Positions 1 to 47,082 of a DNA stretch of 64,000 bases are shown here, piece after piece. The stretch comes from Blasia pusilla (Eukaryota), in assembly GCA_050084515.1 (NCBI GenBank), contig CM114271.1:18848001-18912000 (forward strand). The letters are read 5' to 3'. Each line of letters starts with the position of its first letter. Position 1 is the stretch's first letter. Position numbers and translations under genes: made by a program. The notes under the pieces are model-generated. The model made no database searches and was not told the origin of the DNA. It was given only the letters and a program-made list of their open reading frames with translations.

Positions 1-3000
1 GCTACTGCTCACATTTGCTATGACAAAGATCTTTTTTGTGAGTTTCATCCTGTGTCAAGTGCACAGTATGATGTTAAACAATGTCCTTTACGTACCAGAG
101 TTCACAAAGAACTTGGTATCTGTGCATCAGCTTACAGAGAAAGGCATTCTTGTATTATTCCTTGACAAAAGATGCATCCTTCAAAAGGGAGAAGAAGTTC
201 TCTGCCAGGGTGTGGCAGAAGACAAATTGTTTCGATTGGTGGAAACAACAAAAGTTGAAGCGATGGTGGCTGCTGATGCCATGGTAGCTGAAAACTCCAA
301 CAACATGAAACTGTGGCATCTTCGACTCGGCCATTTATCAGAGATCAACCTTCGTTCTCTACAGAAGATGGTGGAAGGGTTAAAACTACATGCTGATGGT
401 AGATTGGACTTTTGTAGAGCATGTGCTGAGGGTAAATCTCACAAATTGTCATTTCCCAAGAAATCTTTGAGTAGATCAACAGGCCTTCTAGATCTCATCC
501 ACTCAGATGTTTGGGGTTACATGACACAGAAGTCTCTAGGAGGAGCTGCTTGGTATGTGTCCTTTGTGGATGATTATAGCAGAAAAAGCTTTGTGTATCT
601 GATGAAACACAAAGGTGAGGTTCTTGATAAGTTCAAGAACTTTGTGGCAATGGTGGAGCTACAGACAGGAAGAAAAGTGAAGAAAATTCGCTCAGATGGA
701 GGCAAGGAGTACAGGAACAAAGAGTTCTCCTCCTTTTTGCAACAAAAGGATTTTGGCTGATGTCACAGCCAGAGACAGTCCCTCTCAGAATGGAGTAGCA
801 GAGAGACTAAACAGAACTCTGTCAGAGAAGGCGTTGAGCATGCTCCAGCATGCAAATCTCAGGAAAAGCTTTTGGGAGCTGCAATCAAGACTGCAAACTT
901 TCTGAGGAATGTAAGTCCTACTAGTGCTTTGAATGGGATGACTCCAGAAGAATGCTGGAGTGGTAAGAAGCCAGATATCTCCCACCTGAGAGTCTTTGGT
1001 TGTCCAGCTTACGTACATATCCCAAAGGAGCAAAGATCAAAATTCAGTAAGAAGGCTGAAAAGCTCATCTTTGTAGGATATGAGACTGGCTTGAAGGGAT
1101 ATGTTCTCTACAATCCAAAGACTGGACAGTGTGTCACAAGTAGAGATGTGCAGTTTGATGAAACCTGGGAAGGAGATCAGAAGAAAATTTCTGAAGTAGA
1201 GGGTGAATCATCATCACAACCGCAAATTACTTTTCATGCAGGAACTCCAACAACTGATCTAGAAAGAGATGCAGATCAAACCTCGAGACCATCTCGTGGA
1301 GAATTCCGTTCAGAAAATCTGAAGGTATATGTCAGGAGAAAGCAGAAAGTTGTCCAAACTGAGGAGAATCATCAGGAATCCAACTTTCAGCCTGCTGAAG
1401 TACCAGGTACCTCTGAAGATGCACAAACTGAAGAAGTGGCAGAGACATTGCCAAGGAGATCCGGAAGAACGAGAACACCTATTGACAGGTTGGGAGTTCA
1501 TCATGAGAAACAGGCTCACTCCTCAGTGGATGAAGAAGCTTGTCTTACTATGGATGGAGAGGATGAACCTCAAACACTTGCACAGGCTATGAGTAGACCT
1601 GATTGGAGCAAGTGGGAGATTGCCATTGATCAAGAGAAAAAGTCTCTTGCAAAGAATGGCACATGGGAGTGGACTGATCTTCCCAAAGAGAGGAGATCCA
1701 TTGGTTGCAAATGGGTTTTCAAGATCAAGAGAGGAGCTAACAATGAAGTGGTGAAGTACAAAGCTCGTCTTGTAGCAAAGGGTTTCAATCAGCAAGCTGA
1801 AGTTGATTATACAGAGACCTTTGCTCCTGTAGTACGGTATGGTTCCATAAGGTTGCTTTTAGCTCTAGCTGCTGAAGAAGATTGGGAGGTGGAGCAATTA
1901 GATGTGGAGACTGCTTTTCTGAATGGAGACCTGAAGGAAACCATCTACATGGATGTTCCAGATGGGTATGGTGGACATAGGGGCAATGCATGTTTGTTGA
2001 AGAAGGCATTGTATGGTCTTAAACAGGCTCCAAGAGCCTGGTATGAAAAGTTGGACTCTTACCTTAGGGAACAGGGGTTTTGTAGAGCTCATGCAGATTT
2101 GAGTGTTTACTGCAAAAATGGTACATTGTTTATTGCAGTTTATGTAGATGACCTCCTGTTGCTAGGCAAAAGTAAGAAAGAAATCCAGCAAGCAAAGGAC
2201 AATCTTTGCTCAGTCTTTGCTATGACTATCATAGGCCCAGTGAAGTTCATCCTTGGAACTAAAGTTGAGAGGAACAGAGCAGAAGGATGGATTAGACTCA
2301 GTCAGACTCACTACATTGATGCGATGCTGACAAGGTATAGAATGGCTGAGGCAAAGCCAGTTTCTACTCCACTGGATCCTGGGTGGAAACTTGCCAAAAC
2401 AGGTGCAGACAAACAGGAGGAGAATGAGAATGTTGAAAACCTTCAACATTTGTATCAGAGTGCTGTGGGTTCTCTGATGTTTGCCATGGTTTGCACAAGG
2501 CCAGATATCTCATATGCAGTGGTAGCACTGGCCAGGTACACGTCTAAACCTACTCTCACACATTGGAGATGTGTAAAGAGAGTCTTACGGTACTTGAAAG
2601 GTACCAAGAATGCGTATCTTGAATACAGGAAACAAGGATGTTTTCCTACCTTGACTGGCTTCACAGATGCTAGTTGGGGGGATGATCCTGACAACAGCAG
2701 GTCTACTGGTGGATATGTATTTACATTGAGTGGTGGTGCTATCAGTTGGCGCAGCAAGCAACAAACATCTGTTGCCTTGTCCACAACAGAAGCTGAGCTT
2801 ATGGCAGCTTCAAATGCTACTCAAGAAGTAGTTTGGCTGAGGAGATTGCTTGAGGAGGTTTGTTATAAGCAGAATGATGGAACTGTATTGTATTGTGATA
2901 ATACAGGAAGTATAAGTCTTCTCAAGAATCCTGTTCATCATCCTAGGACTAAGCATATAAATATTAGAAGAAGATTTATAGAGGAGAAAGAAAATGAGCA

Positions 3001-3124
3001 AATAGTCCAAGTAGAATATTTTCCTACAGAGGATATGACAGCTGATGTATTGACAAAGGCATTGTCAAGAGAAAAGCACAACAAATGTGCTCAGAAGATG
3101 GGTCTTATATTAAACTCCAGTTAA
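1..3124 (+). pseudogene. copia pol (PR-IN-RT-RH) with a deletion near nt 55-60 and two compensating frameshifts (~750 and ~875)
   Basis: ORFs 20..760 and 872..3124 are in the same frame; the integrase segment ILADVT...SFW lies in another frame (696..905). Confidence 0.9.
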
Positions 3125-6649: not shown

Positions 6650-7910
6650 GCCTCATACATCTCTATGGGGGACGAATTAATGTTTATCGTGCAATCGACT
6701 ATAGATATGGGTCTTCTTCGTTGCCGTCGCCGCTCCTGGTAGTAATCTTCCTCGTTCCACCACTTGGGTTGGCACAGCCTATTGCATAGGATCCGTCAGT
6801 ACAACATTTGCCATCACCACCTTAGCCTCTTGTGTCATATAAAGTTTAGTACGAATGAGGCAATCTCGCATGGAGCAGTGCCGCTCTCTCTACACATAGA
6901 AACCACTCTCGCGAGCAATATTGAACATCATATCTAGCACCGCATCGTAAATGACTATCCTCTCACCTCCAACTGGACAGTTTGCCAAATGCACACCAAG
7001 TGGATCTAGACTCCAATGACATTCGCAATATGTTTCGATTGGGCATCTCGCACCGATGGTTCGAGATGCCCAATCGAAACGGCATCGGTGTGGTGTAGGT
7101 AAGTGGTGCGATACGGAAAGCCAATATGAGGGGGCGAGCCCCCAACCATGAGCTTGCCCCCTTTCCGGAGCAAGAGCGAATATACGAGCCCAAACCTCCA
7201 TGGGGGTATTCCCATTAGATATAATGCCTCTAAAAATTGCCTCTAAAAATTGCCTCTGAGTGGGCTTCCACCAAAGAAGATTAGAGCGTAGACTGACCGG
7301 AGGTAACTAAGGAGGTGAAAGTGGGGAGAACGGCTCTGGCCTTAATTAGAAGGGAATCTCTACAAGGTGTGAGTAAAGACTGAAGTGGGAAAAGGCCATC
7401 TTCTACATGGGAGACGTACTGTAGAAGGAGCGGTCTATCCCTAACTATAAATCAAGAGCAAAGAAAGGGTGTTGAAGTGACCCAACTCCCAAAAAAGCCG
7501 AGGGCGCCACTAAATTAGTCGAGAGAAGACCTACTCCACCAAAGGCAATCAGCCAAGAAGTCTTTCTATGAGCTAACTCCGCCATGGGGCACTCTAAGGG
7601 CCCGATTCCAAGGGCATGCTTGGAGGTCACGGGGACCTACTTTTTGGGTCCGAAAATATTATCCAACGGTTCATGAAGGAAAGACCCATTGATTTCAATT
7701 AATTTCTAACGGATTTCAGTTAAATGGGTCGCGAGGACGAATTCTGTGATCAAAAGTTTTGGGCGTAGAAAACTCGACGACGTTGTATCTCGCATGGAAA
7801 CCTAATCCTACTAGGTCCCCAAACACCTCCATGATCTTCCTATCAAAAGATCTACAAAGGGTAGAAGCGTGACTAGACGTCCAAACACATCTAATGAGAT
7901 GACAAAACAA
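6650..7910 (-). mobile_element. Truncated, decayed CRE-like non-LTR retrotransposon fragment with a ~190 bp insertion (~7608-7800)
   Basis: Peptides RSFDRKIMEVFGDL, SWLIAFGGVGL, SLDPLGVHLANCPVGGERI and IARESGF are colinear with the plus-strand element at 10.7-11.7 kb. Confidence 0.85.
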
Positions 7911-8675: not shown

Positions 8676-11600
8676 TCTCTCCATTATTTGGGGAAGGGGT
8701 TGGATCATATGAGATAGGTGAAGATAATAGATGAGAGTTCATAATAGGGAGAGCATTTTCGTGGACGGGAAAAGAGTCGATTACCAGTAGGGCTAGTTCG
8801 AATGGGGGTTGTGGAGCGGATTTTGGTGGGGTTTGTCTTTCGAGTTTAACGGAGGGGGTCATGTTCTCTTCTTGGTGAGAGATGTCCATGTTTCGACCCG
8901 CATCGGCCCCTCGCGTAGGGGCTCGTGGGTCGTCTAGCCGGGATACGAAATATCCTTGTTGTTCCTAATTCTCCATTCGTTCAGGAATTCGGAACCATTT
9001 AGCTACTAAACATCATGACTTTGATAGATTCGGATGGGTGGTTCCTCCAGTCGATCATGGATGATCACCGGTGCTTCATGCATCATCGCCCCCTCCCGAG
9101 GCATGGGAGTGGTTGAGGTCCCACCTTGGCAGCATCACAGGTCTCTTTGAGACTCATTTTCCCTGCCCGAGGTTGTTTCATAGGATCCCCCATGCTATTC
9201 GGGATGAGCTTCGCTAGTCTTTCATCATTCCCTTATCTAGAATCGCACTTGATCCTATGGATGAACTCTCGTGGTATCTACTACTTCTCCTTCCACGATG
9301 GTGTCTTCGCTATACCCGAGGAGGGAAGGTTGGCCATAGAGAGGTTGTGGCCTGATTGGCGCTTCCGAGGAGGTGATTGGGAGTCTCTGCAGAGCGAGTT
9401 TGTGGCATATGCCAGAGGTAGTACTCCACGTGGTTTCCCAGCAGACGATCTTGTAGCTACCAGATTCCGACGATGTAGGAGACTTGGGCGAGCCGGGGAG
9501 TACTTGGGAGTGGCTTATGTGCTCCGCCCTATGGATATGGCTCCTCCTTCCATTGTTACCATCGACGCCCTCCGGAGGCAACACCCTCGTCCAGTGGTTG
9601 ACATCCCAACATTTGTACGTGACTTCCATCCAGACACGACCTTATGCCTAGACCTGTCCCTCTTTGCACGGACACTCGTGCGTTCCCCTAGGATAGTAGG
9701 TGGAGGGTTGTCCGGTATGATGTACGAACACCGTCGTGATTTCTTTCCCTCCGAGGACTCTGCTATCGGCTTTTCCGAGTTGCTTCAGGTTGCCTCTCAC
9801 CTAGCTCAAGGGAGAGTGCCAACAGCAGTAGCCCAGGTATTGGGGGCGGGGCGACTTTTGGCGCTATCGAAGGAGGGTGGAGGGATCCGTCCGATTGCCA
9901 TAGGGGAGGTGCTCTTGCGGTTGGTGAGTCGCACTATTGCTTTGCAGTTCCGTGAGGCTTTCCAGTCACATCTGAGTCCGCACCACTTCGGAGTTGCCAC
10001 GCCAGCTGGTTGTGAGGCTGTAGCCTCAGGTTTGAGGGCTTGTTTAGATATACATCCCGAGTTGGTGGTTCTCCAAGTTGATGTGGAGAACGCCTTTAAC
10101 TCAGTGTCTCGGGCAGCTATGAGCTGAGAGATGCAGGGGGTCCCATAGCGAGCCTGATTTCCTATGCATGTTTTTTATGGGGCCCCCTCGGCTCTCTATT
10201 TTCACCACGGTAGGTTCGAGGAGGAGGTCACGGTCTTGGAGTCTGCTACCGGGACGCGTCAGGGTGATCCCTTGGGTGGTGCATTGTTTGCTTTGGCTCA
10301 TTATCGAGCGGTTCTTTCTACGGTGGAGGCTTTTCCGGGTTGCATTTTCCCGTTGTTGGCAAATGATACTCACATTATCGGCCCTAGAGACTTGGTTATT
10401 CCTGCATTTCAGCACTTTTTAGCACAGTTGGCATACGTTGGCCTCGCGGTGAAGGTGGGAAAGTGCAAGGCTTGGTCTTTATTAGGCTTGTCAGCAGATA
10501 TTCATTTACCCGACGGTTTTTTGACACCTGCTGGAGGGCTTCGCGTCTTGGGAGTCCCACTCGGGAGCCAGGACTTTGTATCGAGTTTTGTGGCGTCGGC
10601 TCTTACCGAGGATCTTCTTCATGTCGACGATCTCACGAGGGTTGGTGACCCTCAAGTAGCTTATGGAATCCTCTCGTCATGTTTTGCCCGTAGCCTTGGT
10701 TATCTGTATAGAACCGTGTGGGCGACTAGCCATATTTCTTCCTTGTATAGATCCTTTGATAGAAAGATTATGCAAGCGTTTGGGGATCTTCTAGGACCTG
10801 GCTCATTAGAGTGCCCCGCGGGGGAGTCAGCTCGTAGACAGGCTTCTTGGCCGATTGCCTTTGGTGGAGTAGGTCTCACAGCGACTGCGTTAGTGGCGTC
10901 TTCAGCCTTTTTAGGGAGTTGGGCCACTGTAGCACCCCTCCTTTGCACCCAATTTTTGGTTAGGGATAGACCGCTACTTTTACAATACGTTTCCCACGTT
11001 GAGGATGGTCTTTTCCCACTTCAGTCTTCACTCACAGCTTGTAGAGACTCCCTTCTTGTTGAGGCTAGAGCAATTCTTCCCGCTTTTTCTTCCCTAGTTA
11101 CCTCTGGATAGTCTGGGCTCCAATCTTCTTTGATGGAAGCCCACTTTGATGCATTATTTAGAGCTGCTATGTCGGACGGGAATATCCCCATGGAGGTTCG
11201 GGCCTGTATTCGCTCTTGCTCCGGAAAGGGGGCAGGCTTATGGGTGGGGGCTCGTCCCCTCATCCCGGCTTTCCGTATTGCACCACTTACCTACACTACA
11301 GCGATGAGGTTCCGACTGGGCTTGCCCCAACCGACGGTGGTTGGTTCGACACATTGCCAGTGTCGCCGGAGTCTGGATCCACTTGGTGTGCATTTAGCAC
11401 GGTGTCCAGTTGGGGGTGAGAGGATAGCCACTCACGATGCAGTGCGGGATATTATGTTCTCTATTGCTCGGGAGAGTGGATTCCATGTACAAAGAGAGAG
11501 GCACTACTCCATGCGAGATTCCCTTATCCGTGCTGATCTCTACATGACGAGGGAGTCTGAGGTGGTGGTAACGGATGTTGTAGTGACGGATCCTACGCGG

Positions 11601-12153
11601 GGGGCGGTACGAGCCCAAGTGGTAGCACAAGGGAGATTGCTACAAGGAGCGGCAACGGCGGCGGCGGCGGTCAAGAAGACCCACATTTATAGTCGACTTC
11701 ATGACGGACATCGATTTATCCCCCTAGCCATTGAGATGTACGGGGCAATGGGGGAGAGGTTTGACTCATTCCTTACGGATTGCGCCCATCATCTCCACTC
11801 GAGAAATGGGTTGTCCTTAGCCACTACGATACTTTATTGTAGGCAACGGGTCTCCATAGCTTTGCAGCGCGCCCAGGAAAATGGGCTTCTGCGGCGGGCT
11901 CAGGCGGTTGGAGACGCCAATGTTAGAGGCCCAGTTAGTGGCAGTCATAGTTTTCTAGGTGTAGCTGATATTGTCTCTTCTGTTGGTGATTTTGGTCGTT
12001 AGGGGGGAGGGCCCCCGTCTTTCTCCTCGGAGCCGGTTCCGGCCTCTTGAGGTCTATTTTTTGGGTCTCCATGCCCCCTCTTTTGTATCGTGATGGGTTT
12101 CCCATCCTTTTTCTACATATATAATTTATTTTTCATTCACTTTTAATAATATA
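8676..12153 (+). mobile_element. CRE-like (RLE-type) non-LTR retrotransposon, inactive, with a 14-bp target-site duplication
   Basis: Single frame 9126-12002 broken by stops at 10125, 10146, 10155 and 11109. RT motifs GIRPIAIGEVLLRL, QVDVENAFNSVSR, GTRQGDPLG, LAND (for xADD). CCHC knuckle, HD, RADL/D/K and FIPLAIExxG endonuclease motifs. CTTTTAATAATATA at 8662-8675 and 12140-12153. Confidence 0.9.
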
Positions 12154-13694: not shown

Positions 13695-14043
13695 AGTGAA
13701 GGCACTAATCATGGTTTACAAAAATTCATAAGAGAGTAGTAGAGAGGTGCTTTGGTTGAGTAATCATTAAAGTATTCATTTTCAAAAATAGTTCTCAAAT
13801 TATGAGCATAAAAGTCTTATTTTTCAAAATATTTATCAAATCATGAACATAAAATTATTATTTTTCAAAAAAAATGAAATTAATTCATGAAGGTTTGCAT
13901 TCATAAAAAAATTACGATGATACTTTTAATATAGTTTCAATTAAATTATCTGAAAATATATCCTTTTTTTTATCATGGAAAGATTTGAAGATAAGCATTT
14001 TCCATGCAACGAACATAAAAAATTCTATACATGTCGTGTCTCC

Positions 14044-14424
14044 CTAGGTTGGACACGCACAAAGTGTGTATCCGTGGACATGTTCATGCAGGCCTGGCTA
14101 TCGACGATCTATACTCAAGCCCGCCCCGCCCACATAGACTCGGGCTCGACCAACCCACACCTAGCCTAGGAACCCGTGGCCTATTCTTACAACCCGTTTT
14201 ATAGCCCACATTGCCCCCCACCCCCATGTCTGCATTGGCCTGTAAAGAGCAGGCCTTGAGTGGGGTTAGGGCAGGATGGTATAGCCAATTCTTGTCCATC
14301 TCCCTTAATCTGAGCATGCACTTGTTCCAGTGGTCCTAAGCTTGTGCGAGCCATTGGGATAGTGAAAAAACCGGGGCATGGGATCCGTTAGGTCTATGGA
14401 CATATCCATTTCTGTGCAACCTTG
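14044..14424. mobile_element. hAT-type MITE (CAAGGTTGCAC TIR family), left TIR degraded
   Basis: CTAGGTTGGAC...GTGCAACCTTG with GGACATG subterminal motifs as in other copies; no TSD seen. Confidence 0.7.
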
Positions 14425-14709
14425 ACATTATCTCGAACTTACTTTTAATCTCAAAACTATCATATGGAAATCTTCTAAAAAATTTCTTATGCATTTTTCC
14501 ACCCAAATTTTCTCCCTACATTTTCAAAGAAATTAACAATTTTTTTCTAGATGAGATGGGGCATTAACTCCAAATTTTTATTGTTATCAAAGATAGAGAT
14601 TAAGGATGTCAAAGTCTCTATAATTGCCATTTAAAAAAATAAAATCCAAATTAAGTTATACAAAAGAAAATTTGTTAAAATTTTGAAAACTAATTGTGTG
14701 AGATTTTAT

Positions 14710-15200
14710 CGTGCGCATACACATCGCTACACAACATACATCGTTGTCATCAAACACACACACAAACACGCACGATCCCATGCTAACTCATGACATCCAA
14801 ACAACGAGACAAGAAGTACCAAAATATCTCTAATAAAATAAGATCCAATCTCTCTCACAACACCATAGTTCTCACATGTGTGCACTCTCACATGTCTCTC
14901 CCAATGTCAAACCAAATCCACTCTCCTAATGAGAGGCTTGGGTTACACACACAAGGCAAGCAAGACCATAGTTTTGTCGCCTCATGCCAAGAGGTTCAAC
15001 AAAAGAAGAGAACGAGCTCTCAAGCTTTCTCTCCTTGAGGTATACCCCTCCCCTCTCCCAAGCTCTCTCCATGGTAACCTATGCTCCCAAGTCACCTCCT
15101 TGGCACTTGACCTCATGTAGGGGGTTAAGGGCCACTTACCAAAAATAGAAATTCAATCATATACTCAAAATGGTACTTACCTAAAATAGCAATTTCCTCA
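14710..15200. repeat. Dispersed repeat, probably LTR-derived; similar to 40120-40245 and 39095-39960
   Basis: Shared blocks ATCGCTACACAACATACAT, GTACCAAAATATCTC and ATGCCAAGAGGTTC. Confidence 0.6.
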
Positions 15201-15204
15201 ATAA

Positions 15205-18103
15205 CCGATGTAGAGTCCTACGACGTCTTGGTTGGTGGAGCAGTATTGTACACGATGGGGTTTTCCCTTGATTAATGGGAGGAATCAGCGTCTTGAGGAC
15301 CAAGATGGCAGTTCGGTGATGGATGACTTTATTCATTACCCGTTTGATTCACATGTGTGCTGATCAAGCGACGGCTAGAAGAGATGGCGACCTTAGCAAC
15401 ATTTAGCAATGCCATCACTAGGCCTAGTGATTTGATTGAGAGACATGTCCATGCAAAGGACACTCCCGTTCCTGAAATTTCTATGGAGAGGAGTGTCATG
15501 GTAGTCGCATCCACCCATGGAGGAGAGTTGCCGATTTGGGGCTCGATTGAGGAGTTACGACACTTAGCCACTGAGCATGTGCAGACCGCGTGGAGCGAGA
15601 TGTTCACACCAAAGCGTGACGGGTCAGAGGAACCCGAGGTAGCCAAAGTGCTACTATGACCCCTTTGGACATCACCCCGATTGTGTGGTGCATTCTAGAG
15701 GAGGGTATTTGCGTGCTGGATCTCTTTGGAGGGATCAACACTGGTTTAGGGATCAACATTGTTGTTTTGCAGGCTGCAGTGCGCATGGAGCAATACCTGT
15801 ACGTGGAGGTTGATGATGTTGCGAGGCGCGCTTCACTTCACTATGTGGTGTAGTTACGCCTCTTATTTCCTGCCTTGTTGACAGCGTCCGCCGTCCAGGG
15901 ATACCAGAGTTCTCTACCGAGGGACACTTCATTGTTGGGGGCACAGGACTTGGAGAGGGCAAGGACCATAGATTTGGTCATTACAGGTTGGCCGTGTCAG
16001 GGCCAATCGAGTGTTGGACGAGGTAGCGGGTTAGTTGAATCTCGGTCCAGGTTGTTTTGGGGGATAATGCGGATCTTGTGACATTTGCAGAAGCATCGGT
16101 CACGTTCTCCAGTATACATTCTAGAGAATATGCCTATCTTAGGAGATTCGAGGCCAGGGTGGTGACGAGTGCACATCAAGTGCATGCATGGATCATCTCA
16201 GCAATGTTTTTGGATGGAGCGAGTGTAGGTTCTAGAGCACACCACCCCCGTCTTTGGTGGACCAACTTGTTGCCACACAAGGTGTTGTGGAGGGTATATG
16301 CACGAGTGGAGCGCCCCTCCCGATTGTTGGTGGATTCCATATTGGATCCGGGCCGTTGATCACAAGTAGTGAGGCATGAAGATCGACCTCCGTTGACTGT
16401 GGTCAACAAGATTGGCATGCCACGGGCAACCTTCCCCACCTCTGTGAGTTTTTTTTGCTTCCTATGCATTCAATGATGCCGAGCGTGGCTTGGTTTGGGA
16501 TGACCAGGTACAACGATTGGTGGAGCCCAATGCCGATGAGCAAGAGTGAGCGATGGGATTTCCCGAGGAGTGACGTCAGTACCGTCACTATCAGAGGCAT
16601 CACGACGTCATGTCTTGGGTCAGGAGATGGACCTAAACTTCTTGACATGGATTTTCAGCTTAGGAGTGGCTGAGCAGCATCGTTTGAGATTGCGACAGAT
16701 TACAACTGTTGCGTTGGTGAGCCCCATGCCTACTGAGATGGTTGAGGCAGTGGCTGGGGGCGAGACTCGAGAAGATTGACATACCAGGGATGATCGGGAG
16801 AGACGCCTTTGGACTTCTTGGGATGTTTTGCAAGTACACTAGGATATGATAGCCACAACATCAAGCATGGTTATGGGTACTGCACGTGGAGGAGATCCGA
16901 TTTTACAATTGATTGTAGGGGAGCATTCGAGTTATGTTGTTCGAGACGGGGTTGCACCATAGCAACCACCGACATCCACACTAGAGATTCCTACCGTAGT
17001 CACGATGGAGACTTAGGAGCCAGATATATATGGGCCCTAAGTTGATAGGAGGAGAGCGACGCCAGATATATCAGTTCTTGAGGAGTTATAGGAGCTATTG
17101 TGCATTTAGCATGCATGATTTGGGTATGCTAAATGGTCCAGGGATCCGCATAGAATTATCGAGCGACACGCCGATCTTTCGACGACCCTACAGGTACAGT
17201 GACATGGAGAGGGCTCTCATTTAGAGTAGGAGCTAGGACTTGGTTGGAGCAAGACTAATGGAGATGTCGCATGGAGGGTATGCATCTCCCATTGTCATGC
17301 CCGCCAAGAAGGATATGCATGGCAACTCGACGGATAGGCGGATGTCGAGGCGGACAATTGATGTCTTACCGACATATCAATCGACAAACAAAGTCCGATA
17401 GGTATGCCATGCCCACTCCTGAGGAGATCTTTGATGCTATTGGGCATGCAAAGATCTTCAATTTGCTAGATCTTTAAGCCAGATACTATCAGCAGCTTAT
17501 CAGATAGGAGGACAGGCAGAAGACGGCATTTTGGGCATCCATCCTCACGGGAAGGATTGTTTATACCAGTGGCGGTTCTTACCATGTGGATTAAAGAATG
17601 CCCTGATTGAGTTTCAGAGGGTCATGGATAGGATCTTGGCAGATCTGGATTTTGCTAGGTGTTATATTGATGACATCTTAGTCTTTAGCGTCATGGTTGA
17701 GGAGCATGAGTGACATCTAGAGGAGGTGTTTTGACGATTGCAGTTAGATGGGCTGAAGCTACATCCAGGCAAGTGCAAGTTCTTATACAACCAGATTGAG
17801 TACCTGGGTCATACGATATATCCAAGGGATCTTAGTGTGCAATAGACAAAGATAGAGGCTATTTTACGCATTCCACGCCCTACAGATATGAGTCGAGTTC
17901 GTTCATTCTTGGGATTAACAAGCTTCTATCGACGGTACGTCAAGGGTTTTAGTTCAATTGCGAAGCCGCTAACCTTGCTGACCAAGGTGGATCAAGACTG
18001 GCACTGGGGGGATGAGCAAGAGAGAACATTTCAAGTGCTCAAGGATAGATTGACATCCGCGCCCACATTGAGGAGACCAATCAGGGGGCGTCCTTTCCAT
18101 TAG
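15205..18103 (+). mobile_element. Ty3/gypsy pol fragment: protease tail - C5 DNA methyltransferase - RT - start of RNase H; many stops
   Basis: ESYDVLVGGAVL (retropepsin C-terminal motif); PIFRRPYRYS, YAMPTPEEIFD, LPCGLKNA, CYIDDILVFS, KCKF, RSFLGLTSFYRRYVKGFS; truncated after RPF. Confidence 0.92.
15656..16670 (+). pseudogene. Cytosine-C5 DNA methyltransferase domain within gypsy pol
   Basis: Motifs in canonical order: I VLDLFGGI, II YLYVE, IV IDLVITGWPCQG (PCQ 15992-16000), V RSRLFW, VI YILENM (ENM 16124-16132), VIII AHHPRLWWTN, IX EPNADEQE*AMGFP, X RRHVLGQEMD. Confidence 0.9.
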
Positions 18104-18780
18104 AAAACCATTCTAATGGAATGAGCGAGGAATTATATAGGATTCCAAGTGAAGTCAGTTTGAGATGATCGATCCGTGTCCTTTTGTCAATCTCAACTCT
18201 TGGTTTTCATAACTGATTGAGGAGTGGCTCGGATGATTTTGACATATGCAATTTTGATCTAATCCGCAATATCTTTTCCTGACACAGATCTTGAATCTGT
18301 GACGTCCAAATTTGAATTTTGAAATGGATGCGAGTATTAGGTTAAGTAACGTAGATGTGCTGACATGGATCTAATCTGGTTTGCTAGTCAAACATCAAGT
18401 TTGTCATGAATGACAAGTATAAGTAGCAACGTTTTATGAGATAATTTTTTTGCTATCGATCTCTCTACACCGGAGGTGCAAAGTGCTTGCTTTGCAAGTG
18501 AGGAAAGAATGTGAGCGCCCGGTTTTTGATCTTTTGTAGGTCGACGCAGAAATACAATCGTGAGGTTCTTTTTTCCTCTCCTTCCGAATGCACCACTTCT
18601 GTTGTTGTTGATATGGTCTACGGTGGAGCTCAATAGGAGTTCATTCTGATGTCAATTGCGGCAAGATAGAAAATGCCTCTAAGGGGGTTTCAGATACTAT
18701 GACTTCCAAGCCTAAAGGAAGATCGTTTGTCAAGGTTTAGGGTAGAGAACGACATCTTTACCATGCTTGATTCAAAGTGT

Positions 18781-18843
18781 ATTCGGCGCGCAACGCGCCG
18801 AATGCCTTGGCATTGTATCCTGATATTCGTAAAGGATACAATG
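18781..18843. repeat. Two adjacent perfect hairpins
   Basis: ATTCGGCGCG-caa-CGCGCCGAAT (18781-18803) and CATTGTATCCT-N11-AGGATACAATG (18811-18843). Confidence 0.85.
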
Positions 18844-19029
18844 AGGTTCTAAAAATAAAAGGAGGTTCTAACATTCCTATTTCTCAAGTCATATAACTGA
18901 TTTGAAAATCCAATGCACTTGGCATATGAAGCGCACATCCAAACTAGTATCATGCCCATCCAAATAGCTCCTTAGAGGTCTCGATGAGTTCATTTTGGAC
19001 TCCATTTACGAGAAGTAAGGTGTAGTTTC

Positions 19030-26849: not shown

Positions 26850-29800
26850 TGGTATGCCTTCAAGATTTCTCTAGCATACTTTTGCTGAGAGAGAAAAATA
26901 GAATTTGACTGTTGCCAAATCTCCAGCCCTATAAAGTACAACAAAAGACCTAAATCTAATATTTCAACACTCCCTTCATTTCCTCTATTTTCTTACTGTG
27001 GTCTCTTATGATGATCAGATCATCCACATACATGACTATCAACATATACATCCCATCTTCGCAAAACACATACAAATTTGCTTCTGACGGACTCTTGATG
27101 AAACCAATCTCTCGGAAGAATGTATCTATTCGGTGATACCATACCTTTGGGGCTTGCTTCAACCCATACAATGCTTGATGAAGTAAACACACTTTCTCTT
27201 ATGATCCTGGTGTTTCAAAACCTGGTGGTTGAGATACATACACCTCCTCCTTGAGACTCCTATTCAGAAAGGCAGACTTCACATCGTATTGGTATGCAGG
27301 CCAATGTCTTGTTCCTGCCACCGCTAGAAAAATTTGAATGGTTGTCATCCTTGCAGTAGGAGCAAAAGTCTCATAGTAGTCAAAACCTTTGATTTGTGAA
27401 CACCCTTGTGCAACCAACCTCACTTTGAATTTATCCAATGTACCGTCCGGCTTGTACTTAGTGTTTTACACCCACTTGGTGCATATTATCTTCCTGTTCT
27501 TTGGCTTCTCAACCAAAGTCCAAGTTTCATTTCTCTGAATAGCGTCCATCTCCATCTGCATGGCCTCTCTCCATTAAGGATGAGCAAGGGCCTCATCCAA
27601 GCATGATGGTTGTTCCACCTTCAAGACCTCTATCATCAAGGCCATGTTGACGAGATGTATTGAAGCTCTATTGTGCTCCTGTAGTCTCTTGGATCTCCTT
27701 GGATGTGTAACAACTTCATCAGTTGCTGAATCCTTGCCATGCAAGAGCTTCTTTATCCACTTAGGGTATGATGACCGTAGTGGAAGAGCAGGCTCCTCTT
27801 TGTAATCATCACCAAATTCTTCTTCTTGATGATCTAGTGTAAACATTGGTGGTGTGCTCTGGTGGGTTATCTCTTCGTTTAATGATAATATGGACGGACC
27901 ATTGATATTCGCCACTTGACGAGGTTGTTCTTGGAACACCACATCACGACTCACAAGCATCTTCTTTGCCTCACGACACCATAGACGATAAGCTTTAGAC
28001 TCATCACTATATCCCATAAAGATGCACTTCCTGCTCTTGGACTCTAGCTTGGTCCTGGATGCTTCAGGAATATGTACAAAGCACTCACTACCAAAAGTCT
28101 CAAAATGTTGGACTGATGGTACCTTACCTCAGTATGATTGATGAGGAGTCATGCCTTGCACTAACTTGGTAGCACTTCTATTTAGAATGTAAACGGTAGT
28201 ATTAACAGCTTCAGCCCAAAATCCTTCTATCAAACCTTTTGCTTTCATCATACATCTTGCCATCTCCACCACTAAATGGTTTCGATGCTTAACAACTCCA
28301 TTTTGTTATGGTGTATGTGCCGTGGTTAACTGTCGCTTGATTCCATGCTCCCCCAAATATTTGTTGAATTTTGTTAATAAAAATTCTCCTCCTCGATCGG
28401 TGCGAAGCTTCTATACCTTCTTTCCTATCTCATTCTCAACCAGCTTATGCCATACTTGAAATTTTCCAAGAGCACTTGCCTTATCACGAAGGAAATACAC
28501 CCACATCTTCCTACTATAATCGTCGACAACTAAAAAGAAGTACGAAGAACCACCTAATGCCACTGTTCTCATTTTACCATAGAGGTTAGCATGAATCAGC
28601 TCTAGAGGAGCCTTTGCTCTATTGCTGGACTCTTGTGGAAATGGTTGTCGGTGTTGCTTGCCCATCATACAAGCTTCACATGTATCTGACACTCCAAAAA
28701 TTGTTGTTAAATCAACAACCATGCCAGATTTATGCATATGACTTAGTAAGGGAAAGCTTAGGTGACCAAATCTTTCATGTCACAACTTATTGCTACTAAG
28801 ATCTATACCTACACTTGTCGTGAAAGCATACAACTTGTAGATATTTCCACGTCGTATATCTTCCGCCGACTACTTTTCCATTGACATCCTCAATGACTGC
28901 TCTAGTTTTCTTGAAACGAACTTCTAGGTCACGATCACATAATACTGAAATTGAAATCAAATTCCACTCTGGTACGTATAGTACATCAGTTAACTTCTTT
29001 TCATCTCCTTTTTTTGAGACTAAAGAAATTGTGCCTTTTCCTTCTATAGGGCACTTTGCATTCTTCCCAAAAATAACAATGATGGGCTCCTGTAGAGGTT
29101 GTAAGGAGCTATACCAATCCTTATGATTGGTCATATGCCTAGATGCTCCACTATCGAGCACCCATGCATCTTCACTCTTTGACTTAGTGGAATGATCTGC
29201 CTGTGTGCAAAACTCTTTGATTGCTATCCAAGCATCTACTTCATGTTCTCCTAGTTCTACAGAATTTACAGACTCCTTCTTAGATCTTAAACAACCGTTC
29301 TTCTCATCATGACTCCTCTTTCTACAATCTTTGATAAGATGACCTAGCTTACCACACTAAAAGCATTTGAAGCCTTTCCTTGGAAATTTCTTCATGACAT
29401 TTGAATTTTAATCCTGATTTCTACCTCTCTGTATGCTGGCAATAAATGCTACATCACTTCCCTCTCTTACTTTGAAGCGCATTTCCTCTTCTACCAACAT
29501 TGCACTAAATTGCTCAAAAGTAAGCAGCGTGGGTCTTACTTGAGTATTCAATGCAGTGACCAAACTGTCATACCTTGGAGGAAAAATCCTTATGCACCGA
29601 TGTGCCAAATCTTTGCTAGAGTTTGAAATTCCTACAGACACCATCTGATCTTGAAGATTCTTGATCCTTGTCAAAAATTGCTCCGCCCTTTCTCCTTCTG
29701 AAAATTTCTCGGACTTAAGTAGATTCTCCAGTCAGGGTAAAGACTCGGATTCAGAATCTCCTTAAGTCCGAGAATCTGAATCCGAGTCTCATTCCTCGTT

Positions 29801-30625
29801 TCAAACTCATTCTTCAAAATATTCCACGCCTCAACAGAAGTGGTCAATTGTTGAAAGAGAGTCATGACAAAATCAATTACATTTGTGACAATCGCACATA
29901 GACCATCAGCCTTTTTGCGTTTCCATGCCACCAATACAACAGGATCGATATCACCAGATGAAGATGAACATGCAGAACTCAAAGTAGCTTGTGGATTTGA
30001 ATCGACCCTTGTGGCCGTCTGCCAGATCTCAAATGATTCGAGGACACTTCTCATTTTGAACTTCTACAATATATAGTTAGACCCATCTAACTTCCCTTCA
30101 CCCAGTGGAGGAGGCGAGCTCGAACATCTCTCGAGATTTTGTGCAAACATACTAGATCGCCAAATACAAAATATTGGAACACCTACTGCTCTGATACCAT
30201 GTGAGAAAACAGAAAGTGAAAAAATCACTGAAATCTTTACAAAACTTAGAGATACAAAGTGGCCTAGTCCGTCAGTGGGCTCACAGAATAGCTTTGATGG
30301 AACCAAAACATGGAGATAACTCGACATATGAGAATACGCTACCGCTACGGCTCCCGACTATTTCACTTCTCAAAAAACTAGGATTTTTAACCTATTTTTC
30401 TTTTTTCTATCATTAGAAAAGCTATGCTAAGACCCCAAACCCCCGCGTCATCTTGGCATACCAGAGGTTGCGCCCCTGGACCCCCGCGATGTATCAGGGT
30501 GTCTTGCACCCTGATGCAATATAGGATTAGATAATCCTAGTAACGCCACCCCAGAAACCACCTATGTTATATTACTATGACTCTTTCGACGTCTAAGTCG
30601 GAACCATCAATCTAGGCTTCTCTCA
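26850..30625 (-). mobile_element. Ty1/copia element, decayed; 5' LTR 30200-30625, truncated inside RT (no RNase H or 3' LTR)
   Basis: PBS TGGTATCAGAGC (30188-30199, tRNA-Met type); gag, LDSGASRHM, CEACMMGKQHR, VDDYSRK, FKVRLVAQG, MYVDDLI, DLGLLLYFIGLEI. Confidence 0.92.
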
Positions 30626-39648: not shown

Positions 39649-39803
<155 letters not shown>

Positions 39804-40245
39804 GGTATCTCCTTTTCTTCTTCCAAGCTCTCTACACGATAACTCATGCTTGCAGATTATCTCCTTGGATCTTGATCTGACATAGGGGATCAAGGGGCAC
39901 CTTCCAAAGTAAAAAAGTAAACTATGCTCAAAGTAAGAACTTACTCAAAAAAGTAAGTTTTTAAATATAGCTCTAATTGAGCTAAAAAAATGCAAAACTT
40001 GCTCTCTTAGATTATCCAAGGCCTCAAAAAGTCATCCTCAACCTCTTGAGGTTGTTCTTTGATCTTTTCAAAGTCATCATATGCATACTCATCAATCCAT
40101 TCTAAAAGACGTGATACTTATCATCCGTATAGATATCGCTACACAACATACATTACTGTCACTAACTACAAACATAAACATAAGATAACATACTCACTCA
40201 TGACATCTTAATAATGAGATGATTGTGTAGTACCAAAGTATCTCC

Positions 40246-43200
40246 AATTGTCCCACTAGGTGGTGGCATAATTAGGTTCCTCTAACCCCATATAGTCATA
40301 TATTCCTACATTCCATGGCACACATCTCTAAGATGCTAATAGCAAAAAGATCGAGGGGTCATATGGTCCCATTGTTCGTTGCCTTCTTATCATCCACGTC
40401 ACTAATGCAAATTTAGATCTATGACTTCATAATAACTATTGTATGTATATATGGGCACCAGATGTTCATTGAGTAATTACTAGAGGACACCTCTCACTAT
40501 TTTCCTTGAGGATTTATAGTAACAAGTGGCATCATACATGTCCTATGCCATCCTCTTGAATATCCATAATAGACTAGTATAGTAGATGCATCGTAGATAG
40601 ATCCATACAATATACAATATAAGCTTGTAGGAACTTGCTAAGCTCAGATCAAATATACCATCAATGTTAGGAAAGCAACATAGCGCACAGTTAGGCATAT
40701 GATCCTTCCAAACCGTACCATTACGTCCCTCCAATGAGAGAACATACGATGATAAAAACTCACGCACTCTCAAGATAGTGCGTCATTTGTAGCATCCAAT
40801 ATCATAAGTGTTGTGTGGTGCAAGTAGACATAATCTCCTTGATTCAACCTTTGAATAGTCAATCCATAACCACCTCCTCACATAGTCACATATCTTAATG
40901 TATCCCAATGTTGTACAATAGCAAAGTTCTCAAACATCATGGGCATAACTCTCTAAACAAACTCAGCCCTATGAGAGCATGCTTGCATCTTTATATACAT
41001 AAAGATCATCGAGGTTCAACACCTCATCAATATCATAACAAATGGTTGTAGTAAATTAGACTCTTGACTATTAAGCAGCAAATAAGATGAGAAGGAATCT
41101 AAGGATGTCTACTTGTTGAATATGTATTGCATCATCAACCATGGAAATTGTAGGTCCCAATCTCCTAGGTGACCTCTCAACAAGTCATACTTGCGTAAAT
41201 CACTCTTCCCTATTTGGACAACTCTCTCCATTGGTCCATCCCAATTTTGCATGTGGACAAAGTTTGTGTTTGCGGACATGTCCATGTTTGTTGACTTATA
41301 TCTATCATATGGAAGGACTTGTTCGTATAAGCCCCATCTTCCCCTTCTTTCGCATCCCCCTTACTTGCCTCCATATTTTGCACTTTCCCGTTTCTTCCTT
41401 CCTCCACCTCCACTCCCTTCCTCTTATTGCTCGACGGTCCCTACCTTACTTCCGCCATAAGCTATAAGTATAGGCCCTTGCCATCCATGTCCATGGACAT
41501 GTCCATATTTTTCCGTCCATGTTCATCTTAGGGACAACCATGGTCCATCCATCTTAGAATGATCTTGCGAAGTAAAGTAGTGGCTAATCAACGCTTGATC
41601 AAAAAAGGCTTGGAACTCCCCATGAAAATCTATACCCTAGTTTTTCAACACCTCTTTTGGAGCGCCATAGAGATTCATTACTTGAGATAGGAATGCAAAA
41701 GCTACTACCTCACTTGCTTTGTTAGACGATGCAACCAACTCTATCCACTTTGAGAAGTACTCGACCATCACCAAAACGTAACAACCATGATGCTCTATCA
41801 AAGGTAAAGGCCTTGCAAAATCCAAACTCTAGCTATAGTCTAAACCCATAATTAGTAGTGGATGCAAGTGTGAAGTCAAAGCAATGAACAACTCAATCAT
41901 ACATCTGACAACAAACTTCTCTACATCATTCTGCATTCCTTGCCATCAATATTGTATCTAGAGCAAGATGTATGTTTGCTTCACTCCATAGTGTATTAGT
42001 GTCCCAACTCCTTGTGTACATATTGCACCAATCATGATCTCTACAAGGGATGAGGAACTACTCATACTCCACCATCCTTCCAAACTCATAAAATGTGTGT
42101 CCCCTCGCATTGAAAAGAGTCTACCTCATTGTAGGGTCTGATCCTCCTATCTAGCACCCACTATGCTAGCAACATTGCCAATACGTACATTCTCCAAGAC
42201 TACCTCGTCTTATTGGATATCTTGACCATATGTCACCTTCTCACCAGTTTTTGGATCTAAGGATCTCCATCAAACCTTGCCATTGAAGTAACACCCTCTG
42301 GCTCTCCTTAGTTGACAAACCCAAACATGTTGATGCGTGCCAATCAAGAACCATCTCCTCATCACTCTCTCCATCCTAATAAGATCCACTTGCATCTCAA
42401 TAGCTTGAGCATGGATTACGACTCAACACGTATGTATCATGATTGAGCATCTCAACTTGATGTACCAACCATAAATCATATATACTCCTAAAACAAGAAA
42501 GCCCACCTAGCAAACTTCCATGTAATCTTGTCAAACTTCTTCAACCACTTCAATGGTTGACGATCAATAATGATGGTAAGAAGGTTGCCAAATAAGTAAT
42601 TCCTGAAATGCGCAATAATCCACACTGAAAGAAATTAAGAAATCAACCTTATACAAGCTATAATTTGTCTCTACAATTTCATTTGAATGACCAACAAAAG
42701 CCATCACAAACTGTGAATCCTCATCATCACACTAGGTGAGCACCACTCCAAGCCCAACCTACTCCAACATATATATAAGTTGAAATGAGTCCCCTTGATT
42801 GATATTCTTAGTATAGATGTAGACATCAATCTATCCTTATGCGATTGAAATGCTCTTTCCTACTCATTCCCCTAGTGCCACTCATGATCCATCTTGATCA
42901 GCAAGGTTAGGAGCTAGACAGTCAAATTGAAACCCTAGACATATCGTCAATAGAAATTTTCCAAAACCATGAATGCAAAATGAACTCATATTTGTAGGGC
43001 ATGGAATGCATGAAATAGCCTCTACCTTTGTTAGTTGAATACCAAGGCTATTTGGATATATTGTATGATCGAAGTACTCAATCTGGTCATAGAAGAATTT
43101 GCACTTGCCTGAATGTAGCTTCAGCCCATGTAACTGCAATCCTCGAAAAATCTCCTCAATATCTCACTCATGCTCCTAAATTGCGGTATTGAAGACTACA

Positions 43201-43490
43201 ATATCATCAATGTAAAACCTACCACAATCCATACTTTCCAAGATCCTATCCATAACCATATGAAACTCATTAGTACGTTCTTCAACCCAAATGGTAAGGA
43301 TTGCCACAAGTAAAAAAAATCCTTCCCGTAAGGATTAATTCCCAAACATGCCATCTTCTACCTATCCTCTAGTTTGATAGGCAATTGATGGTATCACTTG
43401 AAGATCTAAAGAATTGAAGACATTTGCGTATCCTATAGCTGACATCAAATATCTCCTCAAAAGCGGGTATGGCATATCTATCAAACTTCA
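40246..43490 (-). mobile_element. Heavily decayed Ty3/gypsy RT-RH-IN-PHD, related to the 15-18 kb element; hAT MITE in the integrase (~41226-41550)
   Basis: GLKLHSGKCKFFYDQIEY..HTIYP parallels GLKLHPGKCKFLYNQIEYLGHTIYP of copy 1; integrase DFARPLP...EYFSKWIE; QGDYVYL...ILRV...LEG...KDH..NCA; PHD remnant at 40485-40616. Confidence 0.85.
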
Positions 43491-43529
43491 TGTATGGCGA
43501 TAAATATGCCCCTTTATTGGTTTATGACC

Positions 43530-45555
43530 ATCACATTCTCTGAACAGAGCAATAGTTCCATTTGGCAAACCTGCATATAAAAATTCTTCGTCTTCTATCT
43601 AAAAATCGTGATTGGCCATAATAGTCTCAATCTCTCGTGTCTCCTTCCTTTACCTTGTATCCCTCCTATTGAAATACTCTCTAAAATCATTTGTAACAAC
43701 TATGGCATGGAATCCCTCCTTCAATTCTAAGACACGTCCCAATATTAAAAAATTTGTTGCTTAGTGTTCGTGTATTAGTAGGAAGCAATAATCATCTCTT
43801 CATTGGGTTGGTTTCCATGAATTTTACCATCATCCAAGTTCCTATCTTCACAAATACTACCATCTCATGACCTTGTGTGAAATTCCTATCCACCTCATGC
43901 CACTTGTGACTTATCCCATAGTTCGTATAGGAAATCAAGAGAATGTGATACACATTCACTCCAAAGTATGTCAGGAAATTTTGCTTTAATAATTTTCCCT
44001 ATTGCTGGCTCATTGCTAGCATTTTTTGTCACAAGTTGCACCATATTCTTTGGACCTATTTGCATGATAGTCCTTCCTATGTGGCCTACCAACCATTGAG
44101 CCATTTGGGATTCCTCCTTCTTATCTACAAATTTTATTATAACCTCACCTTGAGGATATGAGACTATAATGTTCACTAAAGACTCACTCCTCACATTGGT
44201 CCAAGCATCCATGATGATCATGGCCCCCAAATAAAAATTATCCAATACGGCATCAACCATTTCCCTCACCTTCCCTATATGTTTCATAAGTAGATCAGTA
44301 CGCAACGCATTGTAACCAGGACTTGAATAACACTTTACCTTTGTTGTTGCCAATATTTTTTCTTGAAAGAATCTTGCCGTAATACGTTGAATGATATCCC
44401 ATATTAGTAGAAATACTTTGCCCAAGTATCATTTGAAACTTCTATTTCTTGGAAGTTGAAAGAATCCCTCACATCAACTTGCTTCTTTTAGGCGCTACTA
44501 GTCGTCTCACTTGGCTTAACTATCCCTCAATATTGGTCAAGACTGTCACTCGGTGTCATATCCGCAACCCTATCAACATTGGATAAAAAAAAACACTTTT
44601 TATTTTCTCCTCAGAACCCGATTGGAATGGTATTATCTCCTCCACTTCACTGAAGGGTCTCTCTTCCCTTCTCTATCCATTCGGAGATCCCATTGCACAA
44701 TAGAAGGGACCTTCACACATAATTTGGCATGATGGCCATCTTAACTCCTCTCCTTTTTCTTTTGTTCCTCTCGTGTAAAATGCTCCAGCATCTGCCTACT
44801 ATGATATGTTTTCATTGATTAAGAAAAATACTTACACTACTATTTGTTTGATGTTCCATCTTCTACATGTACTTCTTTCCAATGTTCCTTCACAATCTGT
44901 TGGAGTTCTCTAGCTTTGGTTATGACTACAAGTGAATACCCTTCCCACCCAAAAAATATTTGGTCACTTTGCAACAATTTTACACGCACAAGAATTAGAT
45001 ATCTTGACCTACGAAATAAATGAAAATTACACCATATAGTGTCCATTAATGCCTATAGCAACCTTAGAACACTCACTATAAACAAGAAAGGCCGATATGC
45101 TAGCCTAGATAATTGAGATAACTTAAATCATCAAGGTTATCTAATTGTAAAATATATTCTCACTTATCAAGTTCACCTAGACAAAAGAGTAGAGAGAGGG
45201 AGACATGGAGAGACACTCACCTAGACAGCATGGCCCAAGCCTACGCTTGCAACGAGGCCGTATGTCTCGAGGCTAGGCTTGCTCCTTAGCCCAGGTAGGC
45301 CTAGGGTTTGAGCTTAGGCCTACATCTAGCGTGCATGGCCCACACGTAAGCATGCCTTGTTCGTGCTTAAGCATGTATCCTACCCGCAATAGGGCGCGGG
45401 TCCACACCCTACAGGCGGGGTTTTGTGGTTGGCATGCACTAGGCCCACATGGGCAAGGAGCCTATCTTGGGCCCATATCCCGCACGCATGTTGCTCCCTA
45501 TCCTGCACCCTTCATCGGATCACACACTCATTCTCGCATCTAGAGCCTACGCGGG
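43530..45555 (-). mobile_element. hAT transposase relic (BED-finger remnant and DUF659-like core) with GC-rich subterminal region
   Basis: IIMDAWTN...LVNII...VQLVTKNASN...WSECVSHSLD (43895..44425); W...CKY...LEHF...C at ~44715-44885. Confidence 0.8.

Positions 45556-46775: not shown

Positions 46776-47082
<307 letters not shown>

Follow-up and report, generated by a model that had tools for sequence, protein, structure and literature searches.

De Mendoza et al. (2018, PMC5890265) showed that DNA methyltransferases (DNMTs) encoded by retrotransposons methylate CG sites de novo, and proposed that such elements methylate themselves; the text of the same paper calls the role of a DNMT in a retroelement unclear. 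For the Gypsy-type element KnitGypsy-Dnmt3 of Klebsormidium nitens, the text of PMC5890265 stresses that copies are few, and the legend of its Fig. 4c gives the repeats as A-coding-B-A-B. A 2026 preprint (10.64898/2026.05.21.726589) uses in its text the name 'streptophytes (Gypsy-DNMT3)' and places further DNMT-bearing retroelements in Cymbomonas and Euglena. Here, we describe such an element from a 64,000-nucleotide stretch of the genome of the liverwort Blasia pusilla (contig CM114271.1, positions 18,848,001 to 18,912,000, forward strand; hereafter the window, whose own numbering is used throughout). Positions 15201-18100 of its plus strand hold a dead, doubly truncated fragment of the Ty3/gypsy type, from a family that carries a DNMT3-like domain between the protease (PR) and the reverse transcriptase (RT); for this identity and anatomy we estimate a probability of roughly 85%. 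The literature searched, whose scope excluded subscription journals and supplements, contained no account of a land-plant retrotransposon with a DNMT.

Like KnitGypsy-Dnmt3 as described in the text of PMC5890265, the family combines Gypsy-type domains with an unpermuted, DNMT3-related domain that lies inside the Pol frame without introns; in both, the catalytic residues are conserved, the DNMT is under purifying selection and the repeats follow the DIRS-like A-coding-B-A-B scheme. Unlike that element, for which few copies are stressed in the published text, the family resides in a liverwort, with relatives in mosses and Closterium, and reaches a high copy number, with about 0.3% of the letters of a whole-genome shotgun (WGS) run falling on 3 kb. 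Two features of the family, a stop codon that separates DNMT from RT and a PHD finger following the integrase (IN), go unmentioned in the text on KnitGypsy-Dnmt3, and no mention of either in such elements was found in the literature searched, where figures or supplements might bear on the matter. With SymbioDIRS-Dnmt3 and SymbioLINE-Dnmt of Symbiodinium, as their published text presents them, the family shares a retroelement-borne DNMT (DNMT3-like in the DIRS case) and A-coding-B-A-B repeats; unlike these elements, which use a tyrosine recombinase or an endonuclease, it relies on a protease and a DDE integrase bearing an H2C2 finger. The family is best assigned to the group of the Klebsormidium Gypsy-DNMT3 elements, which it extends to land plants, and as far as the searched literature goes its host range and abundance were not previously in print.

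The fragment in the window and its intact relatives

The sequence-only reading of the window had placed C5 cytosine methyltransferase motifs, in order, between a protease tail and an RT, and this arrangement was borne out by Pfam matches above the curated cut-offs, by collinear tblastn alignments and by alignment of the motifs. DNA_methylase (PF00145) matched 15854-16081 (E 8.9e-7; 29.1 bits against a cut-off of 22) and RVT_1 matched 17435-17713 (E 7.1e-9; 36.1 bits against 29.6), the remaining eight of the ten open reading frame (ORF) pieces giving no Pfam family. When intact relatives were used as tblastn queries, residues 761-1323 of protein P0165, from the protease tail to the DNMT tail, aligned on 15201-16917, and the RT of P0189 and that of the second ORF of locus L042 aligned on 17006/17024-18100. 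The fragment is thus collinear and gap-free with single ORFs of its relatives, running on the plus strand from the protease tail through a linker, a complete C5 cytosine methyltransferase domain and a further tail to the RT, with shifts of frame on the way. The protease tail, SYDVLVGGAVLYTMGF, agrees almost letter for letter with P0165 and P0182. The methyltransferase retains PCQ and EN, and its motifs, which we take to be I (VLDLFGGINTG), IV (GWPCQG), VI (ILENMP), VIII (GSRAHHPRLWWTN), IX (EPNADEQE*AMGF) and X (LGQEMDLNFLTW), follow one another from I to X without permutation. The parts of the fragment, and the repeat that it adjoins, are as follows.

15201..15260, plus strand: C-terminal tail of the aspartic protease (ITDVESYDVLVGGAVLYTMGF..), aligned by tblastn to P0165 761-780 and P0182 771-790; the element is broken on its 5' side at 15203/15207
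15261..15655, plus strand: linker between protease and DNMT, about 130 residues with 4-5 premature stops, aligned to P0165 781-916; no Pfam family in the part checked (15348-15659)
15656..16680, plus strand: DNMT3-like C5 cytosine methyltransferase domain, motifs I-X, in frames 2, 1, 2, 1 with four premature stops; P0165 917-1260
16681..16959, plus strand: tail of the gag-PR-DNMT frame, about 90 residues with two premature stops, aligned to P0165 1261-1323
16960..16962, plus strand: TAG, followed by CAA CCA, the family's in-frame stop between DNMT and RT, at the same place as the stops in related loci
17006..18100, plus strand: reverse transcriptase to the start of RNase H (RH), YIDD box intact, RVT_1 match; about eight stops and several frame slips; 48% identity to residues 26-380 of L042 ORF2
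14605..15207, no strand given: a different repeat, unrelated to the element and in even more copies (WGS depth 2900-4100), at which the element is broken on its 5' side; loose ends at 15203

That this copy is dead, as had been stated from the sequence, holds: at least five changes of frame were located (near 15655, 16150, 16435, 16565 and 17000, with more within 17340-17530), together with roughly 15-20 premature stops. One point of that reading needs correcting, as the TAG at 16960-16962 does not reflect decay but lies at the conserved in-frame stop of two of the three subfamilies described below. The copy is broken at both ends, at 15203/15207, where it joins the other high-copy repeat, and near 18100-18220; 1121 WGS reads of the family extend upstream past 15207 into different sequence. 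No gag, RNase H or integrase belonging to this copy was found elsewhere within the 64-kb window.

Relatives of the window DNMT were collected with a HMMER scan of 1.84 billion representative proteins, using as query the read-through N-terminal half of the fragment with stops written as X, which returned 641 proteins at E<=1e-3. Local domain probes showed that the long relatives follow two plans, RT-RH-DNMT-IN-PHD (type A) and PR-DNMT-RT (type B), and that the proteins nearest to the window (52-58% identity) are of type B. P0182 (1331 aa) and P0165 (1329 aa) each consist of a single gag(CCHC)-PR-DNMT ORF, P0189 (2138 aa) unites zf-CCHC, protease, DNA_methylase, RVT_1, RNase H and integrase within one ORF, and in L042 two ORFs of the same frame, 1369 and 1047 aa long, are separated by one stop. 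The PF00145 scores of the relatives reach 34-51 bits. The Ty3/gypsy order PR-RT-RH-IN, with a DDE integrase, an H2C2 finger and a gag zinc knuckle, is present in P0189 and L042; the fragment itself holds only the protease tail and the RT, and RH-IN is seen in the second copy in the window, described below. In these relatives, the DNMT3-related domain lies within the Pol reading frame of a Gypsy-type element and has no introns. Intact relatives give the full plan as repeat A, gag (CCHC), PR, linker, DNMT3-like domain, RT, RNase H, DDE integrase and PHD finger, followed by B-A-B. Type-A elements resemble the family in being gypsy-type, in their related DNMT and in the PHD finger that follows their integrase, but differ in that their DNMT stands between RNase H and integrase. 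They form a large second class of gypsy-type polyproteins in the metagenome data (e.g. P0015, P0036, P0044, P0051 and P0056) and are possibly akin to the EpiLTRs named in the text of preprint 10.64898/2026.05.21.726589.

From 586 pattern matches in a scan of metagenome contigs, 367 were confirmed, and 80 loci were kept. Among the 43 loci of at least 6 kb, the protease stood just upstream of the DNMT in 37 and the RT just downstream in 38, with both in 32; in seven of the 11 loci that fell short, the missing part was lost to the end of the contig. The loci fall into three subfamilies with a shared plan (58-77%, 49% and 38-43% identity to P0158, the nearest intact domain).

WGS and RNA reads of the same species were mapped on the window, WGS reads at a likeness of at least 80%. 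Summed WGS depth was 1180-2550 in the DNMT bins and 2110-2850 in the RT bins, against 0-4 (13801-14604) and 32-41 (18223-19026) in the flanks, dropping from about 2500 to about 40 beyond 18222. The DNMT part is thereby covered about 300-fold or more above the flanks, as is the RT part. Approximately 5.8 of 1966 million WGS letters (0.3%) fall on the 3-kb fragment, which by arithmetic from the depth table corresponds to roughly one copy-equivalent per megabase. In three RNA runs, 15208-18222 was covered at a depth of 17-127 with the first mate on the minus strand at a ratio of at least 10:1; most of these reads are less than 90% like the window and therefore derive from other copies. On the adjoining repeat at 14605-15207, RNA reads lie on the opposite strand from those of the element, and they alone show a 63-base skip (15072-15136).

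Could the DNMT have come to lie between protease and RT by an accident of this one copy, as a nested insertion or as a host pseudogene beside transposon fragments? The ends of the window copy are indeed heavily rearranged, but the collinear, gap-free alignment to single ORFs elsewhere, the order common to 32 of the 43 long loci and the high, continuous genomic depth over protease tail, DNMT and RT leave an accident with practically no chance, depth and locus order having already refuted it. METHYLTRANSFERASE belongs to the element on four independent lines, namely intact relatives, many loci, the species' own reads and constraint. The earlier suggestion that the domain is part of the polyprotein is thus upheld, the DNMT being an integral, in-order part of the coding region of the family because of the uninterrupted ORFs, the 32 of 43 loci, the equal depth and a ratio of nonsynonymous to synonymous substitution (dN/dS) like that of the RT.

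Class of the methyltransferase and constraint on the domain

A profile built from 14 relatives was compared with all PDB sequences. The best matches were DNMT3A, 3C and 3B, at E about 1e-18, followed by plant DRM (2e-9), DNMT2 (3e-6) and M.HhaI (1e-5), while DNMT1 gave no match at E<=0.01 in the same search. An AlphaFold model of P0158 (predicted local distance difference test score, pLDDT, 78.6; predicted template modelling score, pTM, 0.82) had DNMT3A (8te1_B) as its best fold match, at E 4e-18, a template modelling (TM) score of 0.80 and about 22% identity, and the top 49 Foldseek matches shown were all DNMT3. The target recognition region of the model is of low confidence, with pLDDT under 60 around residues 270-300. 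By sequence profile and modelled fold, the methyltransferase of the family is DNMT3-like. It shares the motif order I-X with the catalytic domain of animal DNMT3A/3B/3C, its best profile and fold match, and this order differs from the rearranged one of DRM. It departs from the animal enzymes in having neither PWWP nor ADD, in being embedded in a gag-PR fusion, and in its motif X, which reads LGQAMD where the animal enzymes have GN.

These matches also bear on the substrate. Methylation of RNA rather than DNA, as 5-methylcytosine on the genomic RNA, is raised for LINE-borne DNMTs in the text of PMC5890265, but the best sequence and fold matches of the family are DNMT3 DNA enzymes, and the DNMT2/tRNA enzymes follow twelve orders of magnitude behind (3e-6 against 1e-18), making an RNA methyltransferase highly improbable.

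Constraint was assessed from dN/dS between copies within a subfamily, with stop codons skipped, as a version confined to stop-free stretches had just 5 and 8 loci. Subfamily 1 had a median of 0.56 for the DNMT and 0.48 for the RT; in subfamily 3, the medians were 0.33 and 0.38, respectively. As dS increases, dN/dS drops, down to 0.10, which is expected if old splits occurred under selection and young differences represent decay. The DNMT evolves under the same constraint as the RT and is under purifying selection. The family values of 0.33-0.56 are a weaker signal than those below 0.2 in the text of PMC5890265, because most of the copies compared here are decayed. The motif IV cysteine and the motif VI glutamate are invariant in the 13 relatives aligned, and across the lineages of Closterium, bryophytes and type A the catalytic cysteine is retained, as are the ENV glutamate, R-x-R in motif VIII and the glycine/S-adenosylmethionine (AdoMet) loop of motif I. 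Motif IV has ECQ in place of PCQ in many lineages.

In-frame stop, PHD finger and possible roles of the enzyme

Subfamilies 1 and 2 have one in-frame stop, at a fixed place, between the gag-PR-DNMT frame and RT-RH-IN. Its context was recorded in 30 of the 80 loci, as TAG/TAA CAA CCC or a variant in 28 and as TAG CAG TTA in two (L042 and L044). P0165 and P0182 terminate at this stop, and the TAG CAA CCA of the window (16960-16962) lies at the same place; subfamily 3 and P0189 have no stop between DNMT and RT. The idea of one continuous PR-DNMT-RT-RH-IN ORF, which had been proposed as a check, thus holds for some lineages (P0189 and subfamily 3) and fails for the subfamilies nearest to the window, where gag-PR-DNMT is closed by the conserved stop. 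Leaky stops, which the stop contexts of the family resemble, are known from murine leukaemia virus gag-pol and from tobamoviruses, with their UAG-CAR-YYA context. As in these retroviral and plant-virus cases, a single in-frame UAG separates an upstream structural ORF from the polymerase; the boundary of the family differs in lying behind PR and DNMT, theirs lying behind gag, and read-through is here suggested by context. The conserved stop looks like a putative read-through boundary placed behind PR-DNMT rather than gag.

About 50 nt behind the stop, a hairpin is predicted both in the moss loci (CUUGGGAGCC..GGGCCCAAG) and in the window (CUUAGGAGCC..GGGCCCUAAG; 17017-17060), with a G-C pair changed to A-U. 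It overlaps the conserved coding sequence WEPLIGPKL and may, for that reason, be meaningless. An RNA structure behind the stop found no support in 15 moss loci (covariation term -0.39; 5 of 30 pairs doubly changed among close relatives).

A PHD finger lies C-terminal to the integrase in L042 ORF2 (L042:8011-8226, Pfam) and in 24 of the 80 loci. At this place, chromoviruses have a targeting chromodomain. The PHD finger occurs in PR-DNMT-RT and in RT-RH-DNMT-IN-PHD elements, and the type-A proteins P0023 and P0048 add a Tudor domain. Where contigs reach far enough, the repeats of the relatives are arranged as A-coding-B-A-B and not as plain long terminal repeats (LTRs): among the 16 loci examined, a long-range repeat was found in five, a short pair around the 3' copy in seven, and both in three (L055, L058 and L073). 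Two identical LTRs flanking the coding region were not found in the relatives. The DIRS-like arrangement was seen in relatives only and not in the window copy, and no terminal repeats are left around either of the two copies in the window, the second of which is described below.

This anatomy suggests how the enzyme might be deployed. Translated together with Gag and PR, the DNMT would be made in excess of RT-IN wherever the stop is read through only occasionally, and, packaged in the particle, it could carry out de novo methylation of new cDNA or of a freshly inserted copy. The PHD finger that follows the integrase would read histone tails, so that the target is chosen or marked, and self-imposed methylation might either damp the expression of the element or make the copy resemble resident heterochromatin, lowering the cost to the host. 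We regard the chances that this scheme of a particle-borne, self-methylating enzyme with PHD targeting and a lower host cost is right as about even. Self-methylation of cDNA or insertion sites, which the sequence-only reading had also proposed, is something we infer after de Mendoza et al. (2018; text of PMC5890265).

A possible alternative is that the DNMT is kept for another role, either as a tether to DNA or chromatin that, jointly with the PHD finger, guides integration, or as an enzyme that methylates host DNA near the insertion. The PHD finger found at the chromodomain position of chromoviruses in 24 of 80 loci and in L042 ORF2 would suit such a role, as would the ECQ in motif IV of many lineages, and the text of PMC5890265 itself calls the role unclear. 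A mere tether, however, would not need the catalytic cysteine, the ENV glutamate, R-x-R and the AdoMet loop that are retained across lineages, and the dN/dS of the domain equals that of the RT. We consider another role the less probable of the two options, though a considerable one.

Several observations weigh against the overall picture. The window copy is dead and itself incapable of any activity. Most relatives are decayed as well, with ORFs of at least 900 aa in only one of the 80 loci and stop-free DNMT stretches in only 2 of 34 and 1 of 23. The first half of the DNMT has a WGS depth of about 1200, about half that of the RT, and it may be that some copies are without the domain, that copies are more diverged there, or that a sister family shares the RT. 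Furthermore, the library line of the WGS run includes the word cDNA, though the run is filed as DNA and has equal orientations. The RNA of the family is read as sense by the usual stranded-library convention, uncalibrated by host genes, and may stem from transcription running on from neighbours. That the stop is read through is itself deduced from nothing but its context, and an RNA structure behind the stop found no support in the window either (z -1.4; 17 of 200 shuffles fold equally well). The case for self-methylation is built from the conservation of motifs and from experiments that the text of PMC5890265 describes for other elements. Finally, the likeness to KnitGypsy-Dnmt3 is a likeness to its description, taken without Klebsormidium sequences, Fig. 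4c or the supplements, and is thus limited as regards sameness of lineage and of domain order.

Descriptions of transposon-borne DNMTs have so far come from organisms with which experiments are difficult (Symbiodinium and Klebsormidium). An abundant, transcribed liverwort family, with undescribed annotated relatives in Marchantia polymorpha, Riccia, Calypogeia and Sphagnum, brings the question of what such enzymes are for to a group with a tractable genetic model and good methylome data. Testable hypotheses on dosage and targeting arise from the anatomy: the DNMT belongs to the Gag-PR frame, which in two of the three subfamilies ends at the stop, and the integrase carries a PHD finger. It also follows that bryophyte 'DNMT3-like' gene models can be parts of transposons, and surveys of host DNMT repertoires need to be filtered for them.

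Host range, lineage and the rest of the window

Members of the family were identified among 'unnamed' or 'hypothetical' proteins of Sphagnum jensenii, S. troendelagicum, S. tenellum, Calypogeia fissa, Riccia sorocarpa, Marchantia polymorpha and several Closterium strains. The single gene models P0403 of Marchantia and P0394 of Riccia each span DNMT and RT when aligned on the window. Judged from these protein sequences, the family is not rare in land plants. The statement in the sequence-only reading that such elements are known from dinoflagellates and a charophyte alga remains correct for what has been described in the text of the papers searched (dinoflagellates and Klebsormidium, plus Cymbomonas and Euglena in the 2026 preprint), but its view that they are no standard feature of land-plant elements needs amending, as annotated Marchantia, Riccia, Calypogeia and Sphagnum proteins belong to the family.

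DNMT trees, unrooted and without host DNMT3, placed the window DNMT in a starred clade (99) with P0182, a gag-PR-DNMT protein, and Sphagnum proteins. The Closterium proteins formed separate type-B clades, and all type-A DNMTs (28 of 90 rows in the tree) formed one starred clade that does not contain the window DNMT. In one tree, 18 of 19 PR-DNMT-RT elements fell on one side of a weak branch; in the other, they were paraphyletic or unresolved.

No Klebsormidium protein was identified among the 30 clusters whose source was checked. This negative, like the trees being unrooted and without host DNMT3, leaves some room for an independent capture of a host DNMT3 by the bryophyte elements, convergent with the Gypsy-DNMT3 of Klebsormidium, and the texts of PMC5890265 and of preprint 10.64898/2026.05.21.726589 state that retroelements took up a DNMT several times. 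On the other side stand the PR-DNMT-RT order common to Closterium (Zygnematophyceae), Sphagnum and liverworts, the unusual A-coding-B-A-B repeats reported in the text of PMC5890265 for the Klebsormidium element too, and the DNMT3-like nature of the domain in both, and we consider independent capture unlikely. One lineage uniting the bryophyte elements and that of Klebsormidium is favoured because of the order shared with Closterium and the shared odd repeats, the comparison being made without the algal sequence. More tentatively, and with the odds rather against it as a whole, this might be a single ancient streptophyte gypsy lineage that predates land plants, carrying a DNMT3-like writer with Gag and a PHD reader on its integrase, still among the more abundant, transcribed repeats of liverworts, relatives of the model Marchantia included, which would methylate its own copies de novo and so shape the host methylome independently of RNA-directed DNA methylation (RdDM) and host DNMT3.

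Two further groups of proteins were noted. P0343 (455 aa, on a 2.4-kb contig) is labelled as a protein of a Candidatus Obscuribacterales metagenome-assembled genome (MAG; cyanobacterial-like) and shares 49% identity with P0158 and 39% with the window; the likeliest origin is plant DNA that ended up in the MAG by binning. P0107 and P0311, from Closterium sp. NIES-54 and NIES-53, are gene models that join a type-B-like DNMT with the Copia-type domains SH3_retrovirus and RVT_2, and represent either a chimeric annotation over two elements or a Copia element with a DNMT. The text of a 2025 MBE paper (PMC12344493) mentions 'LTR Copia' DNMT3 elements in streptophytes.

The window contains a second decayed copy of the same kind of element:

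40503..43559, minus strand: RT-RH-IN with a PHD remnant, 75.6% nucleotide identity to 17373-18097 and collinear with residues 125-1027 of L042 ORF2

Its PHD remnant lies at 40503-40634 (minus strand). The copy is uninformative on the DNMT because it is cut on its 5' side inside the RT, where it adjoins a hAT-like transposase ORF (43898-44428, minus strand) that interrupts it.

The only clear host gene noticed in the window is represented by polyamine oxidase exons at 57641-59234 (minus strand), the last of which (57641-58144, minus strand) has 96% identity to Marchantia polymorpha, 81% to the moss Ceratodon and 80% to the liverwort Calypogeia, which points to a liverwort host near M. polymorpha but probably distinct from it. 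Ty1/copia-like stretches occur at 2-3121 (plus strand) and 27577-30063 (minus strand). A long interspersed nuclear element (LINE) with a long RT ORF occupies 9117-12002 (plus strand), with a related piece at 6893-7306 (minus strand); in the ESM Atlas, its ORF is matched in Eukaryota, most commonly Streptophyta. Long (CA)n/(GT)n and (GA)n/(CT)n microsatellites lie at 46740-47110 and 39650-39940.

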